From contig JAZRAL010000012.1 of NCBI GenBank assembly GCA_045634545.1, positions 1-57,894 on the forward strand: 57,894 nucleotides of DNA, given 5' to 3'. Under the pieces are notes generated by a model. It ran no database searches and was not told the DNA's origin. It saw nothing but the letters and a program-made list of their open reading frames with translations. Made by a program: the position numbers and the translations under genes. Below are positions 24,414 through 56,059 of the stretch, in pieces (within the stretch, counting starts at the first letter, position 1; the number at the start of each line of letters is the position of its first letter). The stretch comes from Alphaproteobacteria bacterium. GTDB taxonomy: Bacteria > Pseudomonadota > Alphaproteobacteria > RF32 > CAG-239.

Positions 24414-24462
24414 TTCTTTAACTATCGCATATTACAATACCTCATAAATAAAGAGGGTTATT

Positions 24463-25530: not shown

Positions 25531-26806
25531 TGCGCTCAATATTTGCGCCAACAGCTTTTAGTTTTTCTTCCAATTTTTCATAGCCTCTATCAAGGTGATA
25601 AACTCTATTAACAATAGTTTCTCCTTCAGCAACAAGGCCAGCTAAAACAAGAGCAAAAGAAGCTCTTAAATCTGTTGCCATAACTGGAGCACCAGAAAGT
25701 TTTTCAACACCTCTAACAATAGCAGAAGCTCTACCATGAATATTTATGTTTGCCCCCATTCTGCAAAGCTCAGGAACATGCATAAAACGATTCTCCCAAA
25801 TACTTTCAGTAACCAAAGATGCACCTCCAGCAACAGTCATCAAGGCCATATATTGAGCTTGTAAATCTGTTGGAAAGCCTGGGTAGTAGTCTGTATAAAT
25901 GTCTTCACCAACTAAGCTCTTGCCTCTAGCGTCAACAATAATAGAGTTATCTAAGTATTCAATACTAACACCCATCTTCTCTAAAACTCTTAAAGGTTGT
26001 TGAAGGTGTTCTGCATTAGCATTAACAAGCTCGATTCTACCTTTTGTAATAGCAGCCGCAATTGCATAAGAACCAGCTTCGATTCTATCAGCAACAACTC
26101 CATGAGTCGTCCCATTAAGCTCTGTAACGCCTTCAATAGTCAAAATAGAAGTACCGCGTCCTTGAATCTTTGCGCCCATAGAATTAAGCATATCAATCAA
26201 ATCAGTAATTTCAGGCTCTTTAGCCGCATTTTCTATCTTTGTAGTACCTTGCGCAAGGGTTGCAGCCATAAGAATATTGCAAGTAGCTCCAACAGAAGCC
26301 TTGCTAAATATAATATGCGCACCTTTTAATCCATTAGGAGCATCAGCAATAACATAACCATTTTTGATTTCAATATTAGCGCCCATTTGCTCTAAAGAAT
26401 TTAAGTGAATATCAATAGGTCTAGCACCAATTGCACAACCTCCAGGAAGAGAAAATTCAACATGTTTAAATCTAGCAAGCAAAGGACCCAAAACATAGTA
26501 AGAAGCTCTCATCTTTCTAACATAGTCATAAGGTGCAATAAGTTCTTTTATTTCGTCAGCTTTATAAACATAAGATGTTGAAGGCATTCCATTATATGTG
26601 TCATCTCTTTTTTCAACCTTATGTCCCATAAATTGAAGCAATCCATTAAGGAAAGTTATGTCAGAAAGATTAGGGATATTTCGTAAAACAACTTCTTTAT
26701 TAGTCAATAATGATGCGCAAACCAAAGGAAGTGCCGCATTTTTTGCACCGCTAATGTTAATTTTTCCTTCTAAAACATTTCCGCCAATAATTTTAATCTT
26801 ATCCAT
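25514..26806 (-). CDS. murA: UDP-N-acetylglucosamine 1-carboxyvinyltransferase
   Basis: SGAKNAALP, LPGGCAIGARP, PGFPTDLQAQ, ATDLRA, YHLDRGYE. Confidence 0.97.
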   Translation of the reverse strand: MDKIKIIGGNVLEGKINISGAKNAALPLVCASLLTNKEVVLRNIPNLSDITFLNGLLQFMGHKVEKRDDTYNGMPSTSYVYKADEIKELIAPYDYVRKMRASYYVLGPLLARFKHVEFSLPGGCAIGARPIDIHLNSLEQMGANIEIKNGYVIADAPNGLKGAHIIFSKASVGATCNILMAATLAQGTTKIENAAKEPEITDLIDMLNSMGAKIQGRGTSILTIEGVTELNGTTHGVVADRIEAGSYAIAAAITKGRIELVNANAEHLQQPLRVLEKMGVSIEYLDNSIIVDARGKSLVGEDIYTDYYPGFPTDLQAQYMALMTVAGGASLVTESIWENRFMHVPELCRMGANINIHGRASAIVRGVEKLSGAPVMATDLRASFALVLAGLVAEGETIVNRVYHLDRGYEKLEEKLKAVGANIERIKEAD

Positions 26807-26829
26807 AGTAGTCTCTTTCTTTCATAAGG

Positions 26830-26964
26830 TTATTTAGATTGTAAGGTTTTATTTTTTTGCTTTAGTTCTGCTTCTTGCTTTTTTCTTTTCTCAAGATTCT
26901 TTTTCAAAGCTTTAGCTTCTTTTTCAAAGCGAATATCTTTTTGCTTTTTTTGTGCGCACGTCAT
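26830..26964 (-). CDS. Small basic helical protein upstream of murA
   Basis: AGGGGA RBS before ATG 26964. The ALKKNLEKRKKQ motif recalls the small ORF often found upstream of murA in alphaproteobacteria (from memory, not searched). Confidence 0.65.
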   Translation of the reverse strand: MTCAQKKQKDIRFEKEAKALKKNLEKRKKQEAELKQKNKTLQSK

Positions 26965-27100
26965 AACATATCCCCTAAAATAAAATTGATGACTATATAT
27001 AAACCCCAAACTTTTAAAGAACGCAAGCATAATTTTACTTATTTTTTATAAATTAAAAACAATATGTTAAAAAAAAATCACAAAAAAACGAATTTTTTTG

Positions 27101-27128
27101 TTGCATTTACAAAAAACTATGTTATAAA
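27101..27128 (+). promoter_or_regulatory. Probable sigma70 promoter of the tRNA gene
   Basis: TTGCAT-N16-TATAAA with A/T tracts upstream. Confidence 0.5.
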
Positions 27129-27146
27129 ACACCCTTGTTAAGTGAT

Positions 27147-27221
27147 GCGGGCGTAGCTCAGGGGTAGAGCGCACCCTGGCCAAGGTTGATGTCGAGGGTT
27201 CAAACCCCTCCACCCGCTCCA
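27147..27221 (+). tRNA. tRNA-Gly (GCC), with non-canonical positions
   Basis: 75-nt cloverleaf GCGGGCG...GCTC/GAGC D-stem, anticodon GCC, GGTTCAAAC T-loop, U73 discriminator and encoded CCA. Confidence 0.85.
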
Positions 27222-27253
27222 ATCAAAAGGGCCACCGAAAGGTGTTCTTTTTC

Positions 27254-27385
27254 ATTGGCTAAGAGGGTGTGGTATTTGAACCCGAAAAGAGGGTTCGACT
27301 ACCAGCGAAAGGCGAACGGAAGTGCGCCGGTAAGCGTTAGCTTATGAGCGCCTGTGCGATAGAGCAAAGCGAAAATCAATCCCTT
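27254..27385 (+). other. GC-rich structured element linked to the tRNA 3' end
   Basis: Degenerate inverted copy of the tRNA 3' end, internal hairpins, and a split T-arm-like pair gagggttcga...aatccctt. Confidence 0.55.
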
Positions 27386-27391
27386 AAAAAC

Positions 27392-27421
27392 AAAAAAGCA
27401 CCTTTATTTAGGTGCTTTTTT
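27392..27421. terminator. Bidirectional intrinsic terminator
   Basis: aaaaaagcacct-ttattt-aggtgctttttt perfect stem. Confidence 0.8.
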
Positions 27422-27428
27422 ATTAGAA

Positions 27429-27671
27429 CTATTTGTGAAAATATCCTTTTAAATAATAATAGGCGAACCTACATAAAAAGAAGAAAATCACAAAGGGGGC
27501 AAAAACTGCAGAACAGAGCACAGCTAGTCCAAAAAATAAAACATTTGGAAATATTTCTAGCAATCCCCAACCAGCAAAAAACATTATCAAGAAAGCAAGA
27601 GCAACCGAACCAGCATCTATTAGCTTATCTCTAGAATAACGCCATGCTTTACTAAGTTTTTTATTCTTCAT
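27429..27671 (-). CDS. Small two-TM membrane protein
   Basis: 80 aa, two hydrophobic stretches, followed by a terminator. Confidence 0.55.
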   Translation of the reverse strand: MKNKKLSKAWRYSRDKLIDAGSVALAFLIMFFAGWGLLEIFPNVLFFGLAVLCSAVFAPFVIFFFLCRFAYYYLKGYFHK

Positions 27672-27743
27672 AATTTAATAATTATAAGTGTTTTCCTAAA
27701 AGACAATATTACAACTGATTATTTTTGTCAATATTTTAAAGTG

Positions 27744-27772
27744 TTGACAAAAAGGTCAAGGTGTGTTACATT
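27744..27772 (+). promoter_or_regulatory. sigma70 promoter
   Basis: TTGACA-N17-TACATT upstream of the 27805 ORF. Confidence 0.65.
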
Positions 27773-27804
27773 ATTAAACAAACCAAATTATATAGATATA
27801 CATT

Positions 27805-28548
27805 ATGAAAAAAGACGTAAAAATCACAAATGTGGTTGTTGATGAGGATGGATTTCACATCTCAACCGAGGAAGATATTCACTTCTTCATGGAAAAGAAA
27901 CTTATCGGAGACATTGTCCCTAAGACCGGCGATATTGTAACCCTTCACACATACGGTGGTAGCTGTATTAGGGGAATGGATATAAACTCTAAGCCAATCT
28001 ACTACAAAACAGATGAAGACCTTGAAAAGGATGCTGAAGCTTTCAGAGAGCAAGAAAAAAAGAGAAAACAGGCAAGTTTTGAGAAAAACAAGCCAACTTT
28101 AGACAGGCTCTTTTCACTTCTCCCAAAGCTTCTTCAGCATCGTATCGAGATGTTTAGGACATTTGTTCCTAACTATCGCATCGAGTGGGAGATGTATGAG
28201 CTCACCGCCGTTTTTCTTGGCTACAAGGTTTACCTTAACTGCAAAGCTCAGAGTTATGACGAGTTTTGCCAAAAGGTTGATAAATTCGACATTGGCAAAT
28301 ATGTTCGTACCCACAAAGAGCTTAAGACCTTTGGTATGTCCTTAAATCAGGGAGACTTTGCCCGCTACCTTGCAAAAGGAATTTTTGGAGATGTGTACAA
28401 CAGAAACATTGACATTAACAATCCAAAGCTAGACGATTTGAAAGAAGCTTGGGTTATGTATGCTCCTGATGCCATTTCTCCAATCACTGGAGGTACCCTC
28501 CATCCAAGAGGAAAGTATGTAGAAGAATACATCACCAAAAATCGCTAA
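27805..28548 (+). CDS. Hypothetical protein with atypical codon usage
   Basis: 247-aa ORF with its own promoter and terminator; more C/G-ending codons than its neighbours. Confidence 0.75.
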   Translation: MKKDVKITNVVVDEDGFHISTEEDIHFFMEKKLIGDIVPKTGDIVTLHTYGGSCIRGMDINSKPIYYKTDEDLEKDAEAFREQEKKRKQASFEKNKPTLDRLFSLLPKLLQHRIEMFRTFVPNYRIEWEMYELTAVFLGYKVYLNCKAQSYDEFCQKVDKFDIGKYVRTHKELKTFGMSLNQGDFARYLAKGIFGDVYNRNIDINNPKLDDLKEAWVMYAPDAISPITGGTLHPRGKYVEEYITKNR

Positions 28549-28550
28549 TT

Positions 28551-28589
28551 AAAAAACAGCTCTAAGCCCGTCTTAGGGCTGTTTTTTTT
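28551..28589 (+). terminator. Intrinsic terminator
   Basis: aaaaaacagctctaag-cccgt-cttagggctgtttttttt. Confidence 0.8.
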
Positions 28590-28669
28590 ATTTTAAATCA
28601 TAGATTAACCAAATCTTCAAGACTATATAATATAGTAATATATATTACATAACAACAAAGGGGTGAACA

Positions 28670-29770
28670 ATGGCGATATTTGGTAAAGATAAAGAACAAG
28701 AAGAACAAACACAACAAGCTCAACCTAAACCATCAGTTATGAGTAGTGCAGCCCTCCTAAAAAAAGAGGCAACAATCCCTCAAAAGGTTATTGAAGATAG
28801 TCTTCCTAAAACAACCAATGATGCAAAATTTTCAGATTTATACATAACCCCAGATAAAACTTGCTACATATGGAGTGGCAAATCTAATAGTGGATTAAAA
28901 GTTGCAAAATTCGTTGACTTGCAAGAGTTTATCAATGCCGTAATCGAAAAATATGATGGTCATAATGCTAGTTATTCTCTTCAGTTCAAAGGGAGAGATT
29001 ATCGTATAGAAAGAACCGTTGCACTAAAAGGTGAACAATATTGTGCTCGCAAAATGCCAACCTCAATTCCAAATTTAGAAAAATTAGGCTTACCAGGTGG
29101 AATATATCGTCAACTATTAACCTTAGCAGATAAAAGTGGCTTAATTCTAATTGCCGGAGCCACTGGAACAGGAAAAAGCACAACCATTTCAGCTCTCTTA
29201 AAAAAATACCTCCAAACCGAAGGAGGATATGCATTCACAATTGAAGATCCAATAGAAATGCCTCTAGATGGTATATATGAAACAGTAAATGGTGATTTAG
29301 GACTTTGCAAACAAACAACACCACCAAATGGTAAATGGGAAGAGGGCATCAAATCAGCACTTCGCTCAAAGCCTCGCTATATTTATCTAGGGGAGATACG
29401 CTCTCCTGAAGCCGCCGAAGAGCTACTTCGTGCCGCAACATCAGGACACCTTGTATTTTCAACCATACATGCAAACAATGTTGCAGATGCTGTAAATGCC
29501 TTAGCTAAATATGCCGCATCAAGTGGTATAAGTGAAGAATTAGCATATGGATTAATGGCAAACGGGTTGCTTGCATGCATACATCAAAATCTTGTAGGTT
29601 CACCTAAACGTTTACGAGCAGAAGCTTTATTTGCAAATCCAAACATACATGGGGGATGTGCTGTTCGAACAATGCTAAAAAGTGGAAAACTAAGCATAGC
29701 AACACTACTTGAACAGCAAAAAACTAAAATGGAAAAAGGTTTGCCATTGTTTGAAACCCCGCAACCATAG
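28670..29770 (+). CDS. PilT/DotB-family secretion or pilus ATPase
   Basis: SDLYI, Walker A GATGTGKSTT, Asp box TIEDPIE, Walker B YLGEIR, His box SGHLVFSTIHAN; AVRTMLKSG at the position of the PilT AIRNLIRE motif. Confidence 0.88.
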   Translation: MAIFGKDKEQEEQTQQAQPKPSVMSSAALLKKEATIPQKVIEDSLPKTTNDAKFSDLYITPDKTCYIWSGKSNSGLKVAKFVDLQEFINAVIEKYDGHNASYSLQFKGRDYRIERTVALKGEQYCARKMPTSIPNLEKLGLPGGIYRQLLTLADKSGLILIAGATGTGKSTTISALLKKYLQTEGGYAFTIEDPIEMPLDGIYETVNGDLGLCKQTTPPNGKWEEGIKSALRSKPRYIYLGEIRSPEAAEELLRAATSGHLVFSTIHANNVADAVNALAKYAASSGISEELAYGLMANGLLACIHQNLVGSPKRLRAEALFANPNIHGGCAVRTMLKSGKLSIATLLEQQKTKMEKGLPLFETPQP

Positions 29771-29819
29771 TTTAGCACAAGCCCCAAAAAGCTATCCTCG
29801 ATTGAGTTTAGCTTCTTTT

Positions 29820-29860
29820 GTCATCCCTCGTTTTGCCTTAGCAAAACGTCAAGGGATCTC
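29820..29860. repeat. Bulged palindromic intergenic element, copy 1
   Basis: gtcatccct-cgttttgc-ctta-gcaaaacg-tca-agggat-ctc. Confidence 0.9.
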
Positions 29861-29863
29861 ATT

Positions 29864-30916
29864 CTAGTCTCCCATTTCTAAACATTTTTTAATTTTATAA
29901 AGAAGACTATTCTTATTTCTAGGATCCTCTAGCATTTCCCTTATTTTATCATTTCTTGCCAAATCAATAGCAGTTCTTCCATCTACATCTTTAGCTAAAA
30001 TATCCGCCCCTCTTTCTAATAACAATTTTACAATTTCACTATAACCCCATCTAGAAGCCAATATAAGCGAAGTATCTCCATCATTATCTTTAGCTTCAAT
30101 ATCCGCCCCCTTTCCTAATAATAATTTTACAACTTCACTATGACCATCATAAGAAGCCGCCATAAGCGACGTCCATCCAGATATAGATTTAGCCTCAATA
30201 TTTGCCCCTCTTTCTAATAATAATTTTACAACTTCACTATGACCATCACCAGAAGCCCCCATAAGCGACGTCCATCCAGAGTTATCTTTAGCTTCAATAT
30301 CTGCCCCTTTTTCTAATAATAATTTTACAACTTCACTATGACCTCTACGAGAAGCCCCCATAAGCGACGTCCATCCAGCTCTATCTTTAGCTTCAATATC
30401 CGCCCCTTTTTCTAATAACATTTTTACAACTTCAGTATGCCCAAACAAAGAAGCCCACATAAGCGACGTCCTTCCATCTACATCTTTAGCTTCAATATCC
30501 GCCCCCTTTTCTAATAATAATTTTACAACCTCACTATGACCTTTATAAGAAGCCCACATAAGCGAAGTACTTCCATAATCATTCTTAGCCACAATATCCG
30601 CCCCTTTATTTATTAACTCTTTTACTTTTTCAAAATTTATTTCATTCTTTATACATTCCTTAATCAACTCTTCCTCTAATTCTTTAGCTCTTTTTTCATC
30701 AATAAACTCTTTAGCACCATTTTCCTCTAAAAACTCGCAAACATTACTTAAACCTTTTTCTTTGGCTACAAATAGAGCAGACTTTGCGCCATACAAAGCA
30801 TTCACATCTCCCCCTAATTTAACAAGCATATCAAGCTTAGCAAGCTTAATATGTTCTGCCATTTCTTCATCTTTGATAATCTCTATCAATTGGCTTTCTA
30901 ACGTTACTTCACTCAT
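29864..30916 (-). CDS. Ankyrin repeat protein ank1 (subtype A: six near-identical 33-aa repeats plus cap)
   Basis: Repeats ADIEAKDxxGxTSLMxASxxGHSEVVKLLLEKG; shared N-terminal module and C-terminal tail. Confidence 0.95.
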   Translation of the reverse strand: MSEVTLESQLIEIIKDEEMAEHIKLAKLDMLVKLGGDVNALYGAKSALFVAKEKGLSNVCEFLEENGAKEFIDEKRAKELEEELIKECIKNEINFEKVKELINKGADIVAKNDYGSTSLMWASYKGHSEVVKLLLEKGADIEAKDVDGRTSLMWASLFGHTEVVKMLLEKGADIEAKDRAGWTSLMGASRRGHSEVVKLLLEKGADIEAKDNSGWTSLMGASGDGHSEVVKLLLERGANIEAKSISGWTSLMAASYDGHSEVVKLLLGKGADIEAKDNDGDTSLILASRWGYSEIVKLLLERGADILAKDVDGRTAIDLARNDKIREMLEDPRNKNSLLYKIKKCLEMGD

Positions 30917-30948
30917 ATTTGCCTCATTTCTTCTAAAAAATATAGCCT

Positions 30949-30977
30949 ATTTTATCACAAAATTCCCAGCTTTGCAA
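30949..30977 (-). promoter_or_regulatory. Duplicated sigma70 promoter of ank1
   Basis: TTGCAA-N17-TAAAAT with TGn extension; GAGG RBS downstream. Confidence 0.7.
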
Positions 30978-31020
30978 TAAATATCTCCCCAGACGTCATC
31001 CTTGATTACATTCCTAACCT

Positions 31021-31060
31021 GTCATCCCTCGATTGCGTTTAGCAATCGTCAAGGGATCTC
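31021..31060. repeat. Bulged palindromic intergenic element, copy 2
   Basis: gtcatccct-cgattgc-gttta-gcaatcg-tca-agggat-ctc; half copy at ~30995. Confidence 0.9.
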
Positions 31061-31073
31061 CAAATTAAACCAT

Positions 31074-31961
31074 TTATTTATCCATGCTAAACACTTGCTT
31101 AATCTTACTAGCCAAAGACATTTTTCCACTATTCTCTTTTTCATTTCTCTTATCAATAGCGTCAATTATTGTCTTTTTTGTTTTTTCATCTCGCGCCATT
31201 GTTATTGCGTTATAGCCTTCATCATCTCTAATAAGAACATTAGCTCTATTTTCTATTAAAATTTTAATAGCCTTAACAGAGCCATGAGTAGAAGCAAGCA
31301 TTAATGCCGTCAATCCTTCTTTATTTTTAACATCAATATTGGCATCATTTTTTATCAAATATTCAACAATTTCTGCATTGTCATAACGAGAAGCCCATAT
31401 CAAAGCTGTGCAGTCTTCTTTGTTTTTAATATTAACATCAGCATTGTTTTTTACTAAACATTTAACTATTTCAATATGATTATACGCGGATGCCCACATT
31501 AATGCCGTAGCTCCATGATTATTTGTTTCATTAACGTCAGCTCCATTTTTGATTAAAAGCTCAACAACATCTAAATGACCATTAAATGATGCTTCCATCA
31601 AAGCTGTATAGCCAGAATCATCTTCTGCATTAACATCCGCCCCCATATCAATCAATTCATTAATTTCAGCAATATTTATATTTTCAGCTTCACTTGCACA
31701 AATTTTATATAATTTTTCACCAAGTTCATTTACTTTTTCTTCATCAATAAAATCTCTAGCCTTGTTGTCTTCCAATATTTTTGCAATTTTTTCTTCTTTT
31801 ACTTCATTTGCGAGCTTTAAGGCAGACTTTGCGCCATACAAAGTATTAACATCAACGCCAAGTCTAACCAACATATCAAGCTTAGCAAGCTTAATCTTTT
31901 CCTCCATCTCTTTATTTTGAATTATCTCAAACAACTGCTTTTCTAAAATATTCTCACTCAT
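31074..31961 (-). CDS. Ankyrin repeat protein ank2 (subtype B)
   Basis: GxTALMxAS repeats. Start moved to MSENILE by homology with the paralogues; GGGAGA RBS lies inside the end of ank3. Confidence 0.93.
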   Translation of the reverse strand: MSENILEKQLFEIIQNKEMEEKIKLAKLDMLVRLGVDVNTLYGAKSALKLANEVKEEKIAKILEDNKARDFIDEEKVNELGEKLYKICASEAENINIAEINELIDMGADVNAEDDSGYTALMEASFNGHLDVVELLIKNGADVNETNNHGATALMWASAYNHIEIVKCLVKNNADVNIKNKEDCTALIWASRYDNAEIVEYLIKNDANIDVKNKEGLTALMLASTHGSVKAIKILIENRANVLIRDDEGYNAITMARDEKTKKTIIDAIDKRNEKENSGKMSLASKIKQVFSMDK

Positions 31962-31962
31962 T

Positions 31963-33015
31963 TTAGTCTCCCATTCCAAAACCTCTTTTAATTTTATAAA
32001 GAAAACTATTCTTATTTCTAGCATCCTTTAATATTTTCTTTGTGTCATCATATTTTGCCAAATCAAGAGCTGTTTTTCCATAATCATTTTTAGCCTCAAT
32101 ATCCGCCCCTTTTTCTAATAATACCTTAACTACATCACTATGACCATTTGATGAAGCCCACATAAGCGAAGTATTTCCTTTATTATCTTTAGCTTCAATA
32201 TCCGCCCCTTTTTCTAATAACAATTTTACTATTTCACTATACCCTTTGTAAGAAGCCCATATAAGCGAAGTATCTCCATCTACATTTTTAGCATCAATAT
32301 TAGCCCCTTTTTCTAATAATACCTTAACTACATCACTATGCCCCCCTTCTGAAGCACATATAAGCGAAGTATCTCCATCTACATTTTTAGCCTCAATATT
32401 AGCCCCTTTTTCTAATAACAGTTTTACAACTTCACTTTTACCATTTGATGAAGCCAACATAAGCGACGTCCTTCCATCATTATTTTTAGCCTCAATATTC
32501 GCCCATTTTTCTAATAACAGTTCTACAACTTCACTATGACCATTATGAGAAGCAAACATAAGCGAAGTCCATCCAATTATATTTTTAGCCTCAATATTTG
32601 CCCCTCTTTCTAATAATACCTTAACTACATCACTATGACCTCTACGAGATGCCCACATAAGCGACGTCCTTCCATCTACATCTTTAGCTTCAATATCCGC
32701 CCCTTTATTTATTAACTCTTTTACTTTTTCAAAATTTATTTCTTTCTGACCACATTCTTTAATCAACACTTGCCTTAATTCTTCTGCCTTTTCTTCATCA
32801 AAAAACTCTTTAGCACCATTTTCTTCTAAAAATTTTGCAACTTTTTCTAATCTAATATCTTTTGCATTCCTTAATGCTGACCTTGCTCCATACAAAGCAT
32901 TCACATCTACCCCTAATTTAACAAGCATATCAACCTTAGCAAATTTTATCTCCTCGCTCATCTTTTTATCGTTAATTATCTCAAACAACTGACTTTCTAA
33001 CGTTACTTCGCCCAT
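31963..33015 (-). CDS. Ankyrin repeat protein ank3 (subtype A)
   Basis: Same length and repeat framework as ank1. Confidence 0.95.
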   Translation of the reverse strand: MGEVTLESQLFEIINDKKMSEEIKFAKVDMLVKLGVDVNALYGARSALRNAKDIRLEKVAKFLEENGAKEFFDEEKAEELRQVLIKECGQKEINFEKVKELINKGADIEAKDVDGRTSLMWASRRGHSDVVKVLLERGANIEAKNIIGWTSLMFASHNGHSEVVELLLEKWANIEAKNNDGRTSLMLASSNGKSEVVKLLLEKGANIEAKNVDGDTSLICASEGGHSDVVKVLLEKGANIDAKNVDGDTSLIWASYKGYSEIVKLLLEKGADIEAKDNKGNTSLMWASSNGHSDVVKVLLEKGADIEAKNDYGKTALDLAKYDDTKKILKDARNKNSFLYKIKRGFGMGD

Positions 33016-33017
33016 TT

Positions 33018-33770
33018 TTATTTCCCAATTCCAAATCCTTTTTTAATCTTGTCTAATAAAACTTTTTTACTTTTTTTACTAACAGCTCTTTTTATTATTT
33101 TCTCTGTTTTGCTATTAGAAGCCAGCATCAAAGCTGTTTCCCCTTTATTATTCTCTATATCAATATCCGCTCCATGTTGAATTAATAATTCAACAATTTC
33201 CCCATAACCACGCTCTGAAGTATTTATCAAGGCTGTCTCACCATAATAATCTCGAGCATTAATATTTACACCATTTTGAATTAGAAGCTTCACAATTTCC
33301 TTATGATTACGTGTTGAAGCACTCATTAAAGCTGTCCACCCATCATTATTCTCAGCATTAATATCAGCCCCGTTTTGAATTAATAATTCAACAATTTCCT
33401 TATCTCCTTCATGAGAAGCATTCATCAAAGCAGTCCAACCATCAGAAGTTTTTGCATTAACATTTGCGCCATTTTTAATTAATATCTCAGCAATTTCTTT
33501 ATGACCATAATTTAAAGCCATTATCAAAGCTGTATAGCCATAATCATCTTCTGCATGAACATCTGCGCCACTAGAAATTAAAACTTCCGCAATTTCCTTA
33601 TAACCATTTTGACAAGCCAATATCAATGCTGTTTTATCATACATATCTTTATAATTAACATCAACGCCAAGCTTAACAAGCATATCAAGTTTAGCAACCT
33701 TAATATGCTCGGCCATTTCTTTATCTTTAATTATATCAAACAATTGGCTTTCTAATGTTACTTCACTCAT
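33018..33770 (-). CDS. Ankyrin repeat protein ank4 (subtype B, short linker)
   Basis: MSEVTLESQL module fused directly to the TALM/I repeats. Confidence 0.95.
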   Translation of the reverse strand: MSEVTLESQLFDIIKDKEMAEHIKVAKLDMLVKLGVDVNYKDMYDKTALILACQNGYKEIAEVLISSGADVHAEDDYGYTALIMALNYGHKEIAEILIKNGANVNAKTSDGWTALMNASHEGDKEIVELLIQNGADINAENNDGWTALMSASTRNHKEIVKLLIQNGVNINARDYYGETALINTSERGYGEIVELLIQHGADIDIENNKGETALMLASNSKTEKIIKRAVSKKSKKVLLDKIKKGFGIGK

Positions 33771-33801
33771 TTTTGCCCCGTTTTTCTAAAAAACATAGCT
33801 T

Positions 33802-33830
33802 ATTTTATCACAAAATCCCCCACTTTGCAA
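33802..33830 (-). promoter_or_regulatory. Duplicated sigma70 promoter of ank4-ank3-ank2
   Basis: TTGCAA-agtgggggattttgtga-TAAAAT. Confidence 0.7.
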
Positions 33831-33883
33831 CAAATATCTACCTCGTCATCCCTTAATTGCTCTCTCCCCATACTCCTTACCCC

Positions 33884-33924
33884 GTCATCCCTCGTTTTGC
33901 CTTAGCAAAACGTCAAGGGATTTC
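33884..33924. repeat. Bulged palindromic intergenic element, copy 3
   Basis: Core identical to copy 1; half copy at ~33845. Confidence 0.9.
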
Positions 33925-33937
33925 CAAATTAAAACCA

Positions 33938-35014
33938 CTACATATCAATTCCTAATCTTCTTTTTATTTTACTGAAAAAAGAAGCACCATTCTCTTTTTC
34001 ATTTCTCTTTTTAACAGCATCCATTATAGCTTTTTGTGTTCTATTACCATATGCAACCATCATTGCATTTTGACCTTTATTATTTTTTTGATTAACATCT
34101 GCCCCATTTTGAATTAAAAGTTCCACAATTTCTTTATATCCTTTTTCTGAAGCCCACATTAAAGCTGTCTTACCATCATTACTCTGAGCATTAACATTTG
34201 CACCTTTTTGAATTAATAATTCCACAACTTCCTTACAACCATATTCTGAAGCCCACATCAAAGCACTTCCTCTCATTTTATCTCTTATATTAACATCTGC
34301 TCCATTTTTAATTAAAATTTCAACTACTTCCTTATAACCTTTTATTGAAGCCCTCATCAAAGCTGTCTTACCATACTTATCTTGTTCATTAATATTAGCT
34401 CCTTTTTGAAGCAGTAATTCCACAACTTCTTTATTTCCAAATTCTGAAGCCCATATCAAAGCTGTTACTTTAGACACATTATTCTTCACATTAATGTTAG
34501 CCTCATTTTGAATTAAAAACTCCGCAATTTCTTTATGACCTTTACATGAAGCATATATCAAAGCTGTATCTCCCTGAGAATTTTCAACATTAATATTTGC
34601 TCCATTTTTTATCAAAAGCTCCACAATTTCCTTATGTCCTTCATATGATGCTCCCATCAAGGCTGTAAAACCATTATCTAATTTTGCATTAACATCAGCC
34701 CCCATATCAACTAATTCATTAACCTTTTCAATATCCCCATCTTTTTTATTACAAACCTCTATTAAATCCCAACCAAGCTTTTGTGCAGTTTCTTCATCAA
34801 AAATATCTTTTCCACCTTTTTCTTTTAGAAATTCTATAATTTTCGGCTCATCTACCTCATTTGCAAGCTTTAATGCAGACTTCGCTCCATACATAGCATT
34901 AACATCAACGCCAAGTCTAACTAGCATATCAATCTTGGCAAGCTTAATATTTTCCGCCATTTCTTCGTCTTTAATAATCTCAATCAATTGGCTTTCTAAC
35001 GTTACTTCACTCAT
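33938..35014 (-). CDS. Ankyrin repeat protein ank5 (subtype B)
   Basis: GxTALMxASxxGxKEIVELLIxxGA repeats; termini most similar to ank2. Confidence 0.95.
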   Translation of the reverse strand: MSEVTLESQLIEIIKDEEMAENIKLAKIDMLVRLGVDVNAMYGAKSALKLANEVDEPKIIEFLKEKGGKDIFDEETAQKLGWDLIEVCNKKDGDIEKVNELVDMGADVNAKLDNGFTALMGASYEGHKEIVELLIKNGANINVENSQGDTALIYASCKGHKEIAEFLIQNEANINVKNNVSKVTALIWASEFGNKEVVELLLQKGANINEQDKYGKTALMRASIKGYKEVVEILIKNGADVNIRDKMRGSALMWASEYGCKEVVELLIQKGANVNAQSNDGKTALMWASEKGYKEIVELLIQNGADVNQKNNKGQNAMMVAYGNRTQKAIMDAVKKRNEKENGASFFSKIKRRLGIDM

Positions 35015-35042
35015 TTTGCCTCATTTTCTAAAAACATAACCT

Positions 35043-35071
35043 ATTTTATCACAAAATCCCCCACTTTGCAA
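35043..35071 (-). promoter_or_regulatory. Duplicated sigma70 promoter of ank5
   Basis: Same -35, spacer and -10 as the 33802 copy. Confidence 0.7.
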
Positions 35072-35088
35072 CAAATATCTTCTCAAGC

Positions 35089-35128
35089 GTCATCCCTCGA
35101 TTGCCTTAGCAAAACGTCAAGGGATATC
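35089..35128. repeat. Bulged palindromic intergenic element, copy 4 (hybrid arms)
   Basis: gtcatccct-cgattgc-ctta-gcaaaacg-tca-agggat. Confidence 0.88.
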
Positions 35129-35134
35129 CCAAAT

Positions 35135-35165
35135 AAAAAAAGCCACTGTAATAAAACAGTGGCTT
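35135..35165 (-). terminator. Terminator of the nitroreductase gene
   Basis: aaaaaaagccactgt-aataaa-acagtggctt. Confidence 0.75.
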
Positions 35166-35186
35166 AAAAATCAAAACTTAAAACTT

Positions 35187-35786
35187 TTACGGTCTAACAA
35201 TAAGACTTTCATTAATATATTTAACTTCATGAGCTTTAGGTTCTTCAACCACGCCTCCAAAAGGCATTTGAGCAACAAGTTTCCAATCTTGATTAATTTT
35301 AAATTGTTGCTTAATAATATTGTCAATTAATGGATTGTAATGTTGTAAACTTGCACCAATATTTTTTTGGGCAAAAGATGTCCAAATCATAAATTGCAAC
35401 ATCGCATTACTATGTTCTGCCCACACGGGGAAATTGGGGGCATATTGGGGGTAATTTTTTGCTAAATCTGAGGCAATTTGGGGGTCAATAAAGAACAAAA
35501 TAGTGCCAAAACCGGCCTCAAAAGAGGCTATTTTTTGCTCAATTTGCTCTTTTTTTGTGATTTCAGACACTCTAAAAAGCTCTTTTTTTACCAATTCCCA
35601 AAAGTATTTATGGTGCTCCCCCATAAGCAAAATAAGCCTTGCATCTTGTGAGTTAAAAGAGCTTGGATAAAGCTCCAAACACCCTCTAATTAATTCTTCA
35701 ACATCATGTTCTGATAAGTCTAACTTGTTGTTTATATTATAAAAACTATGACGCTTGGAAAACGCCTGCAAAACATTACAATCCAT
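35187..35786 (-). CDS. Nitroreductase family protein
   Basis: RHSFY, PSSFNSQ, GASLQHYNPLID, WKLVAQMPFG. Confidence 0.9.
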   Translation of the reverse strand: MDCNVLQAFSKRHSFYNINNKLDLSEHDVEELIRGCLELYPSSFNSQDARLILLMGEHHKYFWELVKKELFRVSEITKKEQIEQKIASFEAGFGTILFFIDPQIASDLAKNYPQYAPNFPVWAEHSNAMLQFMIWTSFAQKNIGASLQHYNPLIDNIIKQQFKINQDWKLVAQMPFGGVVEEPKAHEVKYINESLIVRP

Positions 35787-35798
35787 CGATTTCTCCTT

Positions 35799-35829
35799 AA
35801 AAAACCGGCACTTTTGCTTAGTGCCGGTT
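35799..35829 (-). terminator. Terminator of the BI-1/YccA gene
   Basis: aaaaaaccggcact...agtgccggtt. Confidence 0.7.
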
Positions 35830-35849
35830 AAAATTAAACCACAAAATGT

Positions 35850-36569
35850 TTATCTTCTATCGCCAAACAATCTAAGTAGCGCCATAAACATATTGATAAA
35901 GTCTAAATACAAAGACAAAGCCCCAGAAATTGCCACTTTTCCTTGCATTTCATCATCTGCTGGCACTGAATAATATATTGATTTCAATGCTTTAGTATCA
36001 TACACGGTTAAGCCTGCAAATATAAATACAGTAATGTATGAAAGAGCATAAGAAAGTCCAGAACTCTTTAAAAAGATGTTAACAATAGAAGCAATTATAA
36101 GGCCAAATAAACCAATAAATAAAAAGCTTCTCCAACCACTTAAATCTTTTTTTGTTGTGTATCCATAAATGCTTAAAGAACCAAAGGTTGCAGCTGTAAT
36201 CAAGAAAACTCTAGCAATACTTGTTCCTGTATAAACTAAAAAGATTGGAGCAAGAGATATGCCCATCAAAGCAGAGTATCCCCAAAACATAGCTTTTACC
36301 TGTGATAAAGTACCTTTATTTAATACCCAACTAAAAGCAAAAACTAAAATAAGAGGCGAAAATAAAGCTAAATAACCAAATCCAGTATATCCCATCTCAT
36401 TGAAAAATAATCTAAAAATTGATGGATTTGTAATAACTAAATAAGCAACTAAAGCTGTTGCACTTAAGCCTCCAGCCATATAATTGTATACCTTTAGCAT
36501 ATAGCTTCTAAGACCTTCATCAACCAATTGTGAACTACTATAACTAGCAAATTCTCTATTCTCAATCAT
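35850..36569 (-). CDS. Bax inhibitor-1/YccA family membrane protein
   Basis: DEGLRSYMLKVYNYM, GYTTKKDLS, ALSLYLDFINMF. Confidence 0.93.
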   Translation of the reverse strand: MIENREFASYSSSQLVDEGLRSYMLKVYNYMAGGLSATALVAYLVITNPSIFRLFFNEMGYTGFGYLALFSPLILVFAFSWVLNKGTLSQVKAMFWGYSALMGISLAPIFLVYTGTSIARVFLITAATFGSLSIYGYTTKKDLSGWRSFLFIGLFGLIIASIVNIFLKSSGLSYALSYITVFIFAGLTVYDTKALKSIYYSVPADDEMQGKVAISGALSLYLDFINMFMALLRLFGDRR

Positions 36570-36655
36570 AATAAAATATTCCCTTCTTAAAGTTTGTTCT
36601 TCTACTAATATAGGAAGTAATTTTTAAAAAATCAATAATTCAAAATAAAATTAAT

Positions 36656-36684
36656 AAAAAACAGGCACCATTCAGGTGCCTGTT
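36656..36684 (-). terminator. Terminator of the aminotransferase gene
   Basis: aaaaaacaggcacc-attca-ggtgcctgtt. Confidence 0.75.
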
Positions 36685-36704
36685 GGGGTTTAATAAAAGT
36701 TTGA

Positions 36705-37865
36705 TTATGCTACTTTTTTAGCTTTTTTAGCTGCAAATTCATTCATTTTTGCAATAACATAATTTTGAGCATCAATTTCCAAATATGGATGCATTGGAAT
36801 ACTGATAACTGTTTTAGATAATTTTTCACAAACAGGAAGTTTTCTTGTATTCCATTTAGCATATGCTGTTTGAGTATTTACAGGGCGAGGATAGTATGCA
36901 CCACATGGAATATTGCATTCTTTTAAGAAATTCATTAATTCATCTCTATCTTCGCAATCTACTGTATATAAACCATAAGCAGAAACAGCATTATCTAGGA
37001 TTCTTTGTTTGCCATAATAAGCATCAAGATTATCATCATATCTCTTTGCAATTTCAGCTCTTTTAACGAGTTCATCATCAAAAACAGTAAGTTTTTGTAA
37101 TACAACAGCACCTTGGAATGAGTCTAAACGTCCAGTTAAACCTAAACGAACATTGTCATATCTGTCTGTAGAGCTCATACCGTGTACACGACAAGATTTT
37201 AATAGTTCAAATTCTTCTTCTGAATTTGTAAACACAGCACCGCCATCGCCATAACAACCTAAAGGTTTTGTTGGGTAGAAAGATGTTGCAACCATATCAG
37301 CAACTGCGCCAGCTTTCTTGCCATTGTAAACTGAACCATATGATTGAGCAGCATCTTGTAAAACTTTCATGCCATTGTCGTGAGCGATTTTCATAATGCT
37401 ATCATAGTCGCAAGGAGAACCAAAGATATCAACAGCAATAATAGCTTTAAGATTTAATTTTCCTTCTCTTTTAACTTCATCAATTGCTCTTTGTAGGTCG
37501 TTTGGATCCATGTTGTATGTGTGTGGATCTGAATCAACAAATACTGGGGTTGCGCCAAGAATTGCAACGCATTCTGCAGAAGCAACAAAAGTAAATGATG
37601 AAACAAAAACAGCATCGCCAGGTTTAACACCCCATGCCATTAAAGCAAGAATAAGAGCATCTGTACCAGAAGCACAAGTAGCGCAGTAATTAACATTTGA
37701 ATATTTTGCTAATTTTTCTTCTAATTCTCTTGTTTCAGGGCCTTGGCAGTATGCGCCGTGATCTAAAACAGCTTTAAAAGCATTTAAAAAATTTTCTTGT
37801 CCAATTACTTTTTGAGCTGTTGCGCAATCAAATAAGTTAATTTTACCATTGTATGTGTTTGTCAT
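36705..37865 (-). CDS. DegT/DnrJ/EryC1/StrS family sugar aminotransferase
   Basis: SGTDAL, FTFVASAE, DAAQS, SFYPTKPLGCYGDGGA (PLP lysine). Confidence 0.93.
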   Translation of the reverse strand: MTNTYNGKINLFDCATAQKVIGQENFLNAFKAVLDHGAYCQGPETRELEEKLAKYSNVNYCATCASGTDALILALMAWGVKPGDAVFVSSFTFVASAECVAILGATPVFVDSDPHTYNMDPNDLQRAIDEVKREGKLNLKAIIAVDIFGSPCDYDSIMKIAHDNGMKVLQDAAQSYGSVYNGKKAGAVADMVATSFYPTKPLGCYGDGGAVFTNSEEEFELLKSCRVHGMSSTDRYDNVRLGLTGRLDSFQGAVVLQKLTVFDDELVKRAEIAKRYDDNLDAYYGKQRILDNAVSAYGLYTVDCEDRDELMNFLKECNIPCGAYYPRPVNTQTAYAKWNTRKLPVCEKLSKTVISIPMHPYLEIDAQNYVIAKMNEFAAKKAKKVA

Positions 37866-38052
37866 TGATATCTACCTCTAAAAAATTATCACATGAAGCG
37901 ATACTACTCGTCAAAAATTGTATTTGCAAAACACAAAAAATTTCTAAATTGTAACATTCTTATACGAAATACATTCAAAATATCAAAAAATAGAGTTGAT
38001 TTATCTAATAAAGTTGTTATATTGCAATAAGTTTTTAAATAAAGAGGTTGAA

Positions 38053-38802
38053 TTGAAAAAAAGTATTTTTGCATTTTTTTTATTGATTGTTTTAGGTTTA
38101 TGTGGTTGTTCAACGACTTCAACATCGGGTAATGGAGGCTTAGAAACCTACAATAGGGCGATGTTTTCTTTTAATAATAAGGTTGACAAATTTGTTATTA
38201 GACCAGTCGCTAAAGGTTATAAAAAAATTACCAATAAATACATAAGAAGTCGTGTTTCTAATTTTTTCAATAATATAGGTGAGCCTATATCTGCTGCAAA
38301 CCATATTTTACAGGGGGATTTTTTGTCATCTGGTGAAAATTTAGGGCGCTTCGTGTTAAATACAACATTAGGTGTTGTTGGTCTATACGATGTTGCGTCA
38401 TCACTAGGTTTGGAAAAAAATAAAACAGGTTTTGATGAAACTATGGCTACATGGTGTATGCCTGATGGACCATTTGTTGTGTTGCCTTTCTTTGGTCCTA
38501 GTACGCCACGCGCTGCTCTAGGATTTGTTGCAGATGCTTATTCTTCTCCTGCTTATTGGGTGGCTCATGAATCTGGTGATGATGGCGCTATGACAATATA
38601 TTATGCTTCATCGGGTCTTAAATACCTGAATTTAATGGCGGAAAATTTAGGCTTTTTGGAGAGTTTGGAAGAGGGAAGTGTAGATTATTATGAGGCAGTT
38701 AAATCTGCGTATCTACAAAATCGTAACAAAATAATGGTGTGTGGAAAGAAAGATGATATAGCGCCGAGCTACGATTTTGATATGGATGATATGGATTATT
38801 AA
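38053..38802 (+). CDS. mlaA: MlaA/VacJ family lipoprotein
   Basis: Lipobox LCGC, ETYNRAMFSFN, RFVLNTTLG, GPFVVLPFFGPST. TTG start after a GAGG RBS. Confidence 0.9.
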   Translation: MKKSIFAFFLLIVLGLCGCSTTSTSGNGGLETYNRAMFSFNNKVDKFVIRPVAKGYKKITNKYIRSRVSNFFNNIGEPISAANHILQGDFLSSGENLGRFVLNTTLGVVGLYDVASSLGLEKNKTGFDETMATWCMPDGPFVVLPFFGPSTPRAALGFVADAYSSPAYWVAHESGDDGAMTIYYASSGLKYLNLMAENLGFLESLEEGSVDYYEAVKSAYLQNRNKIMVCGKKDDIAPSYDFDMDDMDY

Positions 38803-38831
38803 TTGTTTTTTGTAAAGAAAAGGGACTGAAT

Positions 38832-39425
38832 ATGAAAAAGATTTTAGTTTGTTTTTTTGCTTTTATGACTTTTGTTCAATCTGCTGTAGCTGCGATAGAT
38901 AAAGACAATGCTGTTGTAATGGTAGAGAATTTAACAAAAGAAGGAATTGAAAAAATTATAAATTCAAATTCTTCTGCAGAAGAGAAGAATAATGTTTTTC
39001 GTAAACTTTTTACAGAGAATTTGGATTTAGATTTTATTGGTAAATATGTTTTAGGTCGCTATTGGAGAATTGCTACACCTGCTCAGCAAAAAGAGTTTGT
39101 TAAGCTGTATAAAGAATTTAACGTGAAGACATGGTCAAAAAGGTTTGATGAATTTAAAGGAAAGAAATTTTCTTTTTTAGGTACAAGTTCTTCAAATAAT
39201 CCAGATCAAGTTTTTGTGGATACAGAGGTTCCTATGGATGGGACAAAGCCAGTTAGCGTTAAATGGCGAGTTAGTGAGAAAAAAGGCCAAATGAAAATTA
39301 TTGATATAATTATTGAAAATGTTAGTTTGGCCCAGACTGCTCGTAATGAATATACATCTTTTATTGCTAAGTCTCCAAAAGGAATTGAGGGGCTTTTGGA
39401 TAATTTGCGACAAAAAGTAAATTAA
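38832..39425 (+). CDS. mlaC: MlaC/Ttg2D phospholipid shuttle protein
   Basis: Signal peptide, VLGRYWR, IIDIIIENVSL...RNEY; adjacent to mlaA. Confidence 0.88.
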   Translation: MKKILVCFFAFMTFVQSAVAAIDKDNAVVMVENLTKEGIEKIINSNSSAEEKNNVFRKLFTENLDLDFIGKYVLGRYWRIATPAQQKEFVKLYKEFNVKTWSKRFDEFKGKKFSFLGTSSSNNPDQVFVDTEVPMDGTKPVSVKWRVSEKKGQMKIIDIIIENVSLAQTARNEYTSFIAKSPKGIEGLLDNLRQKVN

Positions 39426-39480
39426 AGTAAAAATATCCACTAATTTAATACTTTTTTTACACTTCTTGTGTATAAAATGG

Positions 39481-39509
39481 TTGACAATTGTCTAAAATAA
39501 TGCTATCCT
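39481..39509 (+). promoter_or_regulatory. sigma70 promoter of the giant gene
   Basis: TTGACA-N17-TATCCT with TGn extension. Confidence 0.65.
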
Positions 39510-55924: not shown

Positions 55925-55954
55925 AAGGCGCTGGCTGAGGCTAGCGCTTTTTTT
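55925..55954 (+). terminator. Terminator of the giant gene
   Basis: aaggcgctggc-tgag-gctagcgctttttttt. Confidence 0.8.
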
Positions 55955-55956
55955 GT

Positions 55957-56036
55957 GAGTTCCCATGACGTTTTGCTTGTCGCAAAACGAGGGATAACTG
56001 GTTTGGAGTATGAGGCGAAGTAAACGAGGGATGACG
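55957..56036 (-). repeat. Bulged palindromic element, copy 5 (inverted) with its half copy
   Basis: Reverse complement reads gtcatccctcgtttac...catactccaaacca-gttatccct-cgttttgc-gacaa-gcaaaacg-tca-tgggaactc. Confidence 0.85.
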
Positions 56037-56059
56037 GGGGGGAGAATAAGGTAAATAGA

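Follow-up and report, generated by a model that had tools for sequence, protein, structure and literature searches.

Ankyrin genes between REP-type hairpins in an uncultured gut alphaproteobacterium: probable members of a fast-turnover family of binding proteins

What keeps a row of five similar ankyrin genes together when each of its transcription units opens with much the same promoter and is bounded by the same hairpin, and what might the encoded proteins do? The question is raised by contig JAZRAL010000012.1 of the alphaproteobacterial assembly GCA_045634545.1, whose 57,894 nt were analyzed as a whole and are here called the window; it is contig C12 of a genome (G000) of 1.60 Mb in 65 contigs, 90% complete. 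A sequence-only reading of the locus had described four hairpins in the same orientation, three promoters and five ankyrin genes on the minus strand, and had likened the whole to a cassette array that lacks an integrase. Coordinates and alignment confirm the layout, and on balance we consider the locus to be one array of a lineage-specific, fast-turnover family of all-ankyrin binding proteins. The hairpin that punctuates it fits a genus-wide class of repeats, and the changes that the array has undergone are supported by sequence comparison as recombination at the hairpin and at the constant leader of the genes.

Read along the minus strand from 35133 to 29818, the order is hairpin-promoter-ank5, hairpin-promoter-ank4-ank3-ank2, hairpin-promoter-ank1 and a last hairpin, at a GC content close to that of the rest of the window. 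The first unit opens with hairpin copy 1 (35086..35133; nhmmer E 5e-15), an imperfect copy that folds at -18.6 kcal/mol and is a hybrid, combining a type-A inner arm on the left (CGTTTTGC) with a type-B one on the right (GCAATCG). The promoter/leader block of ank5 follows (35014..35089), with TTGCAA-N17-TAAAAT at 35071-35043, a TG extended -10 and a GAGG ribosome-binding site (RBS) before the ATG of ank5 itself (33938..35014; 358 aa). The second unit begins at copy 2 (33881..33929), recognized by hairpin profile, fold and alignment, which has an inner stem of type A and lies 9 nt past the ank5 stop; an orphan right hairpin arm without a left arm (33845..33860) stands 39 nt past its right arm. 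The promoter/leader block of this unit (33769..33848; hexamers at 33830-33802) leads into ank4 (33018..33770; 250 aa), ank3 (31963..33015; 350 aa, with internal 99-nt repeats that are 76-80% alike) and ank2 (31074..31961; 295 aa), the second of which starts 2 nt past the ank4 stop and the third 1 nt past the ank3 stop. Copy 3 (31017..31065), with an inner stem of type B (CGATTGC/GCAATCG), follows 9 nt past the ank2 stop and is succeeded by the promoter/leader block of ank1 (30915..30996; hexamers at 30977-30949), by ank1 (29864..30916; 350 aa) and, 2 nt past its stop, by copy 4 (29818..29862), again of type A. As the sequence-only reading had seen, ank4 lacks the linker of about 60 residues present in the others, which corresponds to the second and third degenerate repeats. 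Pfam matches underlie the five gene assignments, joined by alignment for ank4 and by a structural model for ank5.

All five predicted proteins match Pfam Ank (PF00023; 128-209 bits for a cut-off of 21.1, E 1e-38 to 1e-64) and Ank_2 (PF12796; 158-199 bits). Their common start is borne out by the invariance of 23 of the 42 leading residues, and the pairings that had been proposed hold in part: the best paralog of ank1 is ank3 (67%) and that of ank2 is ank5 (50.5%), but ank5 finds its own best paralog on another contig. An AlphaFold2 model of ank5, made with 44 family sequences in the alignment, has a mean predicted local distance difference test (pLDDT) score of 95 and forms one continuous solenoid, with ten helix pairs between residues 6 and 302 and then a long C-terminal helix, the last 14 residues being of low confidence. 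The best matches of this model in a Foldseek search of the PDB are designed ankyrin repeat proteins (DARPins; 5leb, 6mol and 6moi, E 4e-18 to 7e-14) and ankyrin-B. In the model, what had been read as an N-terminal module is the first, capping helix pair of a single ankyrin solenoid and not a distinct domain. Taken alone, the first 75 residues match no Pfam family, so that the repeat nature of this part rests on the model.

Variation along the repeats is concentrated in a few places. Among 65 ungapped repeats, out of 253 found in 50 proteins, entropy reaches 3.35-3.54 bits at repeat positions 5, 10, 13 and 14 and is at most 2.3 bits elsewhere. We take these to be the beta-turn and first-helix positions that contact targets, and assume that the variable positions of the family match the set randomized in DARPins. 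In 11 ortholog pairs of equal length between G000 and a sister species (G022), the ratio of nonsynonymous to synonymous substitution rates (dN/dS) is 1.8 at positions 5, 10, 13 and 14 and 3.3 at positions 2, 3 and 16, compared with 0.28 in the framework and 0.40 outside the repeats. The family shares with DARPins a near-consensus framework, variability in the beta-turn and first-helix positions and constant capping ends; it differs from them in being natural, in having 1-12 recognizable repeats, in having two or three degenerate ones at the N-terminus, and in carrying a long basic C-terminal helix or tail.

The two ends of the proteins are of opposite character. The start is acidic and does not resemble a signal peptide, and the net charge is +3.5 over the final 30 residues, compared with -11 for the remainder of the protein. 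The tails end in motifs like KIK-x-GFGMGD or IK-xx-FER. In another species of the genus (G011, locus L059), two proteins of 377 and 508 aa that do not belong to the family, and that are encoded beside a hairpin copy, end in …SRIKKRL… and …SRIRNRLGTGG…, which resemble the KIK-x-x-LG tail of the family; judged from these termini, the tail motif may extend beyond the ankyrin proteins.

The locus is not alone in its genome. A profile search finds 51 genes with the 40-residue start in G000, on 14 contigs and in runs of up to six genes, and a separate search with the head counts 52, including a 19-residue remnant with stop codons; the array studied here is one of about a dozen and the tidiest example. 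Paralog bodies are 31-69% identical in protein sequence (79% in one pair), and the DNA of the 5' module is 74% identical on average. The gaps between consecutive family genes fall into two classes, of 1-7 nt and of 99-186 nt, and the family is therefore laid out in operon-like runs separated by boundaries that hold hairpin and promoter. A hairpin profile detects 21 copies in the genome at E below 1e-3, all 21 of them intergenic, and those beside a family gene always share its orientation. Twelve lie within 60 nt (mostly 2-10 nt) past a family stop codon and 12 no more than 200 nt ahead of a family start; taken together, 19 of the 21 abut a family gene, the exceptions being C12:55954, past a 5453-aa gene, and C41:19834. 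With 0.7 copies expected after family genes, the 12 seen correspond to a binomial P of 5e-13 (assuming about 1500 gene ends). The mapping of module and element across the genome that the sequence-only reading had suggested finds the two together, the element being strongly enriched in G000 at the boundaries of the family.

Family units sit among ordinary genes, as in the order U32 peptidase, unit, ribosomal protein L17, unit, YceG. On contig C29 (10527-13917), two full hairpin-promoter-gene-hairpin units flank rplQ, which must therefore either have its own promoter or be expressed through read-through across a hairpin; the unit between the U32 peptidase gene and rplQ is present only in G000 and G022. 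Decaying members also occur, namely a gene with an in-frame TAG at codon 9 (C25:30792-31625) and, directly past a family gene, the 19-residue head remnant with two stops (C18:13693-13749).

The three promoters of the array were described as nearly unchanged. All share TTGCAA-N17-TAAAAT and a TG extended -10, set at the same spacing from the ATG in each, and the core is about 90% identical, but the 66-nt copies as a whole are only 77-85% identical pairwise and the description was to that extent overstated. As a class, promoter-like sites are not enriched in the region (27 found, compared with 24.4 +/- 5.5 in shuffles), and the case for the three predicted promoters is made by their mutual identity and their position. 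A promoter profile finds about 21 copies in the genome, and the block is also kept in the sister species, where a profile built from the window has 26 matches. Within the ank4-ank3-ank2 unit the ATG of the next gene follows 1-2 nt past the stop (GGGAG before TAA-A-ATG), and the last codons of ank3 (31961-31975) and ank4 (33015-33030), which encode the G-M/I-G-D/K tail, hold the GGGAG/GGGAA-type RBS of the gene downstream. Conservation of the tail and translational coupling are therefore entangled.

The hairpin has an outer stem of 6 bp (ATCCCT/AGGGAT), which a bulge of 3 nt on the 5' side separates from an inner stem of 7-8 bp with a loop of 4-6 nt; folding energies of the four copies in the window range from -18.6 to -23.3 kcal/mol (z from -2.9 to -5.6). 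The pattern CCCTTGACG-N12-22-CGAGGGATGA is found in 8 of the 36 genomes of the genus (14 copies in G000, 32 in G022, 16 in G024, 8 in G013, 7 in G041, 4 in G006, 2 in G011 and 1 in G003), and its backwards control in none of the 36. The neighbours in 31 loci around copies in the six other species are mostly unrelated, one locus having an ankyrin open reading frame (ORF) and two loci of G041 head-like genes. The inner stem has at least 7 perfect base pairs in 69 of 81 copies from the eight genomes and is built from at least 9 different stem sequences; pairing is kept across these through compensating changes, and the structure is therefore under selection. Five hairpins are hybrids of a type-A left and a type-B right arm, the one at 35086 and four in G022. 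Orphan right arms stand 30-39 nt past the right arm in 8 of 20 full copies, and two copies have a second arm at 67-69 nt; elsewhere in G000 such arms are found at C29:11816, C29:13941, C40:10120 and 10158 and C46:17209, and on C35 and C52.

Read on the plus strand, the copies at 33881 and 35086 start with CGTC and those at 31017 and 29818 with TGTC, followed by ATCCCT, and after AGGGAT the four read TTCCA, CTCCA, ATCCCA and CTCAT, which is CCA-like in three of the four at an offset of 1-3 nt. Such ends are not those of an integron core. The sequence of the hairpin fits a bulged variant of the CGTC/TGTC-tagged class of repetitive extragenic palindromic (REP) elements, present genus-wide and not special to ankyrin genes. 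The element of the array is in this respect less specific than had been supposed: in G000, 19 of its 21 copies do stand at family genes, but in the six other species of the genus that carry it, which lack this version of the family, it is a REP that stands mostly beside unrelated genes. According to Di Nocera, De Gregorio and Rocco (2013; PMC3733652), REPs tagged with CGTC/TGTC (or CCTC) have a stem of 8-9 bp starting with A-T pairs, a loop of 4-5 nt and a CCA-like tail, and those tagged with CGTC lie downstream of genes, prevail in Alphaproteobacteria and have no dedicated transposase; some Rickettsia palindromic element (RPE) families are included in the class. The hairpin shares with this description the tag, two A-T pairs opening the stem, a short tail that is CCA-like in three of the four window copies, an extragenic position 3' of genes, several stem variants per genome and the lack of a dedicated transposase. 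It differs from the repeats so described (PMC3733652) in having a stem interrupted by a 3-nt bulge, with 6 pairs outside it and 7-8 inside, instead of 8-9 continuous ones, in occurring mostly as single copies or with orphan right arms instead of as head-to-head dimers, in numbering only 14-32 exact-pattern copies per genome and in being, in two species, mostly tied to one gene family.

A search for a RAYT (Y1 transposase, PF01797) gave no match in the 90%-complete genome, the control search being positive in 6 of 14 genomes, and the hairpin differs from the GTAG-tagged REP/REPIN-RAYT systems both in this respect and in its CGTC/TGTC tag. In Rfam, only two chance-level matches and no family for either hairpin or leader were obtained. 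The hairpin has no T/U run and was not called as an intrinsic terminator. REPs of E. coli have been shown to stabilize the 3' ends of transcripts, and in the transcript the hairpin would most likely act as a 3' stabilizer or boundary rather than as a strong terminator, given that it lacks a U tract.

How such arrays change can be followed in the sister species. The anchor of the comparison is the PilT/GspE-type (T2SSE) ATPase gene that flanks the array convergently (28670..29770, plus strand; identified by Pfam and present in 35 of the 36 genomes of the genus). Its ortholog in G022, 89% identical in DNA, is followed by at least eight family genes on a contig that begins inside the array, and the ank1 unit is absent from this site, in agreement with the proposal of an expandable locus. 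A clear ortholog exists there for ank2 alone (83.7%; the two are reciprocal best hits and occupy the same position beside the hairpin), the best G022 matches of ank1, ank3, ank4 and ank5 being 63-66% identical and not reciprocal. The G022 junction runs from the 3' end of the ank2 ortholog through the left flank of the ank2 hairpin into an inner stem of the ank1-hairpin type; past an orphan arm of 32 nt it then enters the right flank of the ank1 hairpin and reaches the ATPase gene end. One promoter-gene-hairpin unit has therefore been gained or lost through a crossover inside the hairpin.

Change is not restricted to the hairpin. In the whole genome, 23 of the 51 genes have reciprocal best hits in G022, with identities of 52-99% set against the 89% of flanking DNA, and the best conserved array (C46 in G000, C3 in G022) differs by genes inserted at junctions that are 1-5 nt wide in G000, so that gain and loss take place away from hairpins as well. 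The gene at C46:14634 is a mosaic: over nt 1-60 and 61-120 it matches the gene that opens its array at 100% and 92% identity, respectively, and bears no relation to it after that, whereas from nt 120 on it agrees at 90-100% with the ortholog in G022. Among 20 ortholog pairs, 12 begin with a stretch of 126 nt that resembles a paralog of the same genome more closely than it does the ortholog. These comparisons support recombination at the hairpin and at the constant leader as the means by which the arrays change, and the role of recombination points that the sequence-only reading had given to both has stood up well. Of the likeness to a cassette array, the change of whole units at the hairpin has been retained, but there is no sign of site-specific integron-like recombination. 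A search of G000 found no recombinase at any array: five matches to PF00589 lie on contigs C6, C10, C52 and C36, none in the window or beside an array, and the three full-length tyrosine recombinases, two of them of XerC/D size, are all located away from arrays. A dedicated site-specific, integron-like mechanism is hence not supported.

Metagenomes cover the locus in pieces. Contigs from three DNA runs and one RNA run on 28600-36600 are 100-870 nt long and broken at repeats, and the many joints seen in such contigs rest on sides of 24-54 nt (108 nt in one case), matched at 90% likeness, and may derive from paralogs or other species. Error-free pieces occur in three studies: in run X1 they extend from the ATPase gene across the hairpin into ank1, and in runs X2 and X4 across the junction of ank4 and ank3. 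The contigs of the RNA library cover parts of ank5 (330 nt with 2 differences), which is not proof of transcription. The runs that contain parts of the locus belong to 13 studies and are labelled animal gut, faeces or manure, with shares of 0.23-0.46.

The family has a narrow distribution. The head was searched for in 41 genomes, including 24 other species of the genus and 16 genomes outside it, and strong matches to the 42-residue start were obtained only in G000 and G022, with 52 each and the same architecture in both; among the others, four give one or two weak matches apiece (E 3e-5 to 8e-4) and the remaining 35 give no match. Among 5.8 billion proteins, residues 1-72 have 43 matches, all with ankyrin Pfam domains, and the few that are named are hypothetical or ankyrin repeat domain-containing proteins from metagenome-assembled genomes of Alphaproteobacteria. 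In literature searches we found no published account of this ankyrin family. Judged by the ATPase gene, the protein of which is 92% identical, G041 is the next relative, and a diverged version of the head has 20 matches in it (best E 4e-9). There, the same head with a second degenerate repeat is joined either to ankyrin repeats or to a 22-residue repeat of the leucine-rich type, for which Pfam matches to LRR_4 are weak (E about 1e-3) and below cut-off. The head is therefore older than the present ankyrin family and not tied to an ankyrin body, and its occurrence on two kinds of body suggests that it has a function of its own. The genes for the proteins resembling leucine-rich repeat (LRR) proteins (L130, L131, L133, L135, L136 and L137) lie in tandem with ankyrin-bodied ones, and their products end in ...SR, ...DR or ...ER.

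The surroundings of the array in the window are as follows. Its upstream edge is the intrinsic terminator (35140..35165, minus strand; a 10-bp stem and then a T run) of the upstream gene, which belongs to the nitroreductase family (35187-35786; Pfam Nitroreductase). At the other end, a degenerate remnant of a hairpin arm (29796..29812, minus strand) lies in the gap that separates copy 4 from the ATPase gene end and has also been retained in the sister species. A 247-aa protein without Pfam or NCBIfam match, encoded upstream of the ATPase gene (27805-28548, plus strand), is conserved along with it in G022, in a block of 89% DNA identity. The right flank (35140-39500) found no match in G022 DNA among the best 40 of 144 candidates. 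Further away, a 5453-aa ORF (39542-55903, plus strand) has a signal-peptide-like N-terminus and is rich in cysteine; just past it lies one of the two hairpins of the genome that are not beside a family gene (55954..56000, plus strand; found by the hairpin profile), with an orphan right arm at about 56020-56037. This large neighbour was considered as a polymorphic toxin, but its ends, read by eye, are those of a Cys-rich surface protein with a signal peptide and show no recognizable toxin tail. The contig ends that lie near the ATPase ortholog in many assemblies were considered as a genus-wide hotspot and rejected, since the downstream 1.5 kb hold ordinary genes.

The arrangement can be put together from these parts. 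Each predicted transcription unit consists of a conserved sigma-70-type promoter/leader followed by one to several closely packed genes 1-7 nt apart, and many units close with the bulged REP-type hairpin 2-10 nt past the last stop. The proteins are all built on one plan: the capping repeat at the N-terminus is constant, the near-consensus repeats that follow vary in number and carry hypervariable binding positions, and the C-terminal tail is basic. Units and genes would be gained, lost and recombined by ordinary homologous recombination, that is, by unequal crossing-over, deletion and gene conversion, for which the hairpin, the promoter and the first 120 nt or so of coding sequence would serve as substrates, and the hairpin would be a member of the genus-wide CGTC/TGTC-tagged REPs that has been co-amplified with the units.

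What the proteins bind is a separate matter, on which we are more tentative. From their sequences, they could well be exported binders of a eukaryotic or other foreign target, although we would put this forward with less assurance than the existence of the binder family itself. The likeliest route would be the conserved chromosomal type IV secretion system (T4SS), for which the basic tail would provide the signal, while docking or capping would fall to the constant head. G000 encodes three VirB2-type pilins next to VirB4, together with a VirD4-type coupling protein, and VirB4 is found in 34 of the 36 genomes of the genus at 79-92% identity; the system is therefore chromosomal and inherited. 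The three tandem VirB2/TrbC pilin paralogs lie upstream of VirB4 on contig C10 (about 24100-33000), which also encodes a protein with a TcpQ domain and another PilT/GspE-type ATPase; the latter shares 44% identity with the ATPase that flanks the array. A search for an ATP/ADP translocase, which would mark an intracellular way of life, gave no match, as did its control in every genome. Expanded ankyrin gene families are known from Wolbachia, Orientia and Legionella. For the Parachlamydiaceae, expansions of F-box, BTB and LRR proteins are reported (PMC4209131). Our family has in common with such repeat-effector families the dozens of lineage-specific, eukaryote-like repeat paralogs, a small AT-rich genome, a chromosomal T4SS, tandem arrays and fast turnover; it differs in having neither an F-box nor another effector domain and in the constancy of its head, promoter and 3' hairpin.

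Several points weigh against this account, some on the side of the proteins and others on that of the units. The role of the tail codons as RBS could by itself account for the conservation of the tail, and the charge of the tail is only moderately unusual, being reached by 17.6% of background ORFs. The dN/dS analysis took its site classes from the variability among paralogs and had few codons to draw on (127 and 66), and some of the supposed orthologs may be products of conversion. The T4SS is genus-wide and the family confined to two species, so that the two do not co-vary. By a hand count, about 12 of some 27 family units end in a hairpin, which is consequently not required, and the crossover inside the hairpin could equally be site-specific. 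A pre-existing hairpin as a landing site was considered and has no support: by pattern, one is found in 0 of 28 loci of relatives past the ATPase gene (some with less than 1 kb available) or in 0 of 28 around rplQ, and the lack of a hairpin at these empty sites leaves the arrival of units at new places unexplained. Finally, the counts of family genes and hairpins are lower bounds, because the genome is 90% complete and in 65 contigs and several arrays reach contig ends.

Of the alternatives, the one that survives best, although we think it rather improbable, is that the proteins form a cytoplasmic repertoire for defence, either as orphan immunity proteins against polymorphic toxins or as sensors or neutralizers of phage proteins, in arrays like the acquired interbacterial defence (AID) and recombinase-associated AID (rAID) poly-immunity loci of gut Bacteroidales. 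The habitat, a dense animal gut according to the run labels, the absence of a signal peptide and a dN/dS above 1 at the binding surface would all suit such a role, as would the head of G041 with its ankyrin or LRR-like bodies, ankyrin and LRR repeats both being listed among polymorphic-toxin immunity proteins in PMC3482391. As described in 10.1101/471110, rAID-1 loci comprise a 5' XerD-like recombinase and at least two co-directional genes of low GC, and their immunity genes are heterogeneous. Co-directional small genes with a repeated, structured intergenic sequence, differing gene content and a gut habitat are common to our arrays, integron cassette arrays and the rAID-1 loci so described (10.1101/471110). 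The present array nonetheless departs from rAID-1 in having no recombinase, genes of a single family and a GC content like that of the window, and the membership of all its proteins in one fold family is at odds with the heterogeneity of poly-immunity loci. Among 13 neighbour proteins scanned, seven are of housekeeping type (M24 peptidase, Lon-like protease, penicillin-binding protein, L17, U32 peptidase, YceG and a tetratricopeptide repeat protein), one has a domain of unknown function and five are unmatched; no toxin gene, toxin fragment or recombinase was recognized beside the scanned arrays, and no PADLOC search for known defence partners was made. Immunity would also leave the constant head and the basic tail without an explanation.

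Less probable still is a true cassette system, in which the hairpin would be an attC-like single-strand site, circles would be excised and re-inserted, and an unlinked recombinase (XerC/D or a 417-aa integrase-type protein on C52) would do the work. It is easy to see what invites this interpretation: isolated units have a hairpin of like orientation on either side (on C29, at C46:21222-22265 and in the window), the two species differ by one entire unit, the crossover for which falls within the hairpin, five hairpins are hybrids, and units have found their way between housekeeping genes at many chromosomal sites, while the constant 3-nt bulge and outer arms around a free inner stem are what would be expected of a site recognized by its structure. 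The same hairpin, however, occurs in six related species without such units and mostly beside non-ankyrin genes, about half of the units lack it at the 3' end, and gain and loss run also through hairpin-free junctions and the coding 5' module. None of the three full-length tyrosine recombinases is at an array, and two are of XerC/D size, no Y1 transposase (RAYT) was found, and the empty sites of relatives offer no hairpin for landing. The arrays differ from integrons in having no IntI-type recombinase at their head, a promoter for each unit and genes within a unit that are not separated by hairpins, integrons having IntI together with attI and Pc at the array head and mostly promoterless cassettes that each end in an attC site with conserved core sites, and from both integrons and rAID-1 in that the repeat is a genus-wide REP and the arrays are spread over about a dozen chromosomal sites. 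Moreover, 14-16 identical arm bases and the flanking homology suffice for recombination without a dedicated enzyme, as the homologous exchange that we favour would have it.

The reading that the shared pieces have no role of their own and that the genes are young tandem duplicates, conserved merely because they are recent, is equally doubtful, for although the tandem layout, the internal 99-nt repeats (75-80% identical) and the likeness of ank1 and ank3 would agree with it, it is contradicted by the divergence of paralog bodies and 5' module given above, by the retention of the non-coding promoter block in G022, by hairpin pairing kept through compensating changes, by the swapping of the 5' module between paralogs after speciation and by a diverged head on a different body in G041.

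A much bolder version of the binder family can be formulated, to which we attach a very small likelihood. In it, the hairpin-promoter-gene units would be recombinase-independent cassettes that are looped out by recombination between hairpins, the circles re-entering at any REP or constant leader, and this traffic, together with the shuffling of repeats within genes, would maintain a genome-wide, self-diversifying library of about 50 binders on one head that docks to a common export or effector machine, with ankyrin bodies in G000 and ankyrin or LRR-like ones in G041. If true, such a library would give bacteria something comparable to an innate, antibody-like repertoire directed against host, phage or toxin proteins.

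At the strength that we do give to it, the finding means that about 3% of the genome of a 1.6-Mb gut bacterium is devoted to some fifty near-consensus ankyrin proteins with a binding surface under diversifying selection, a natural DARPin-like library the targets of which could be identified and which is housed in small expression units of uniform build. The family also makes a case for REP hairpins and a constant 5' coding module as drivers of gene family turnover without a dedicated recombinase, and it may be taken as a hint that this abundant, uncultured alphaproteobacterial lineage of the animal gut interacts closely with the host epithelium, protists, competitors or phages.

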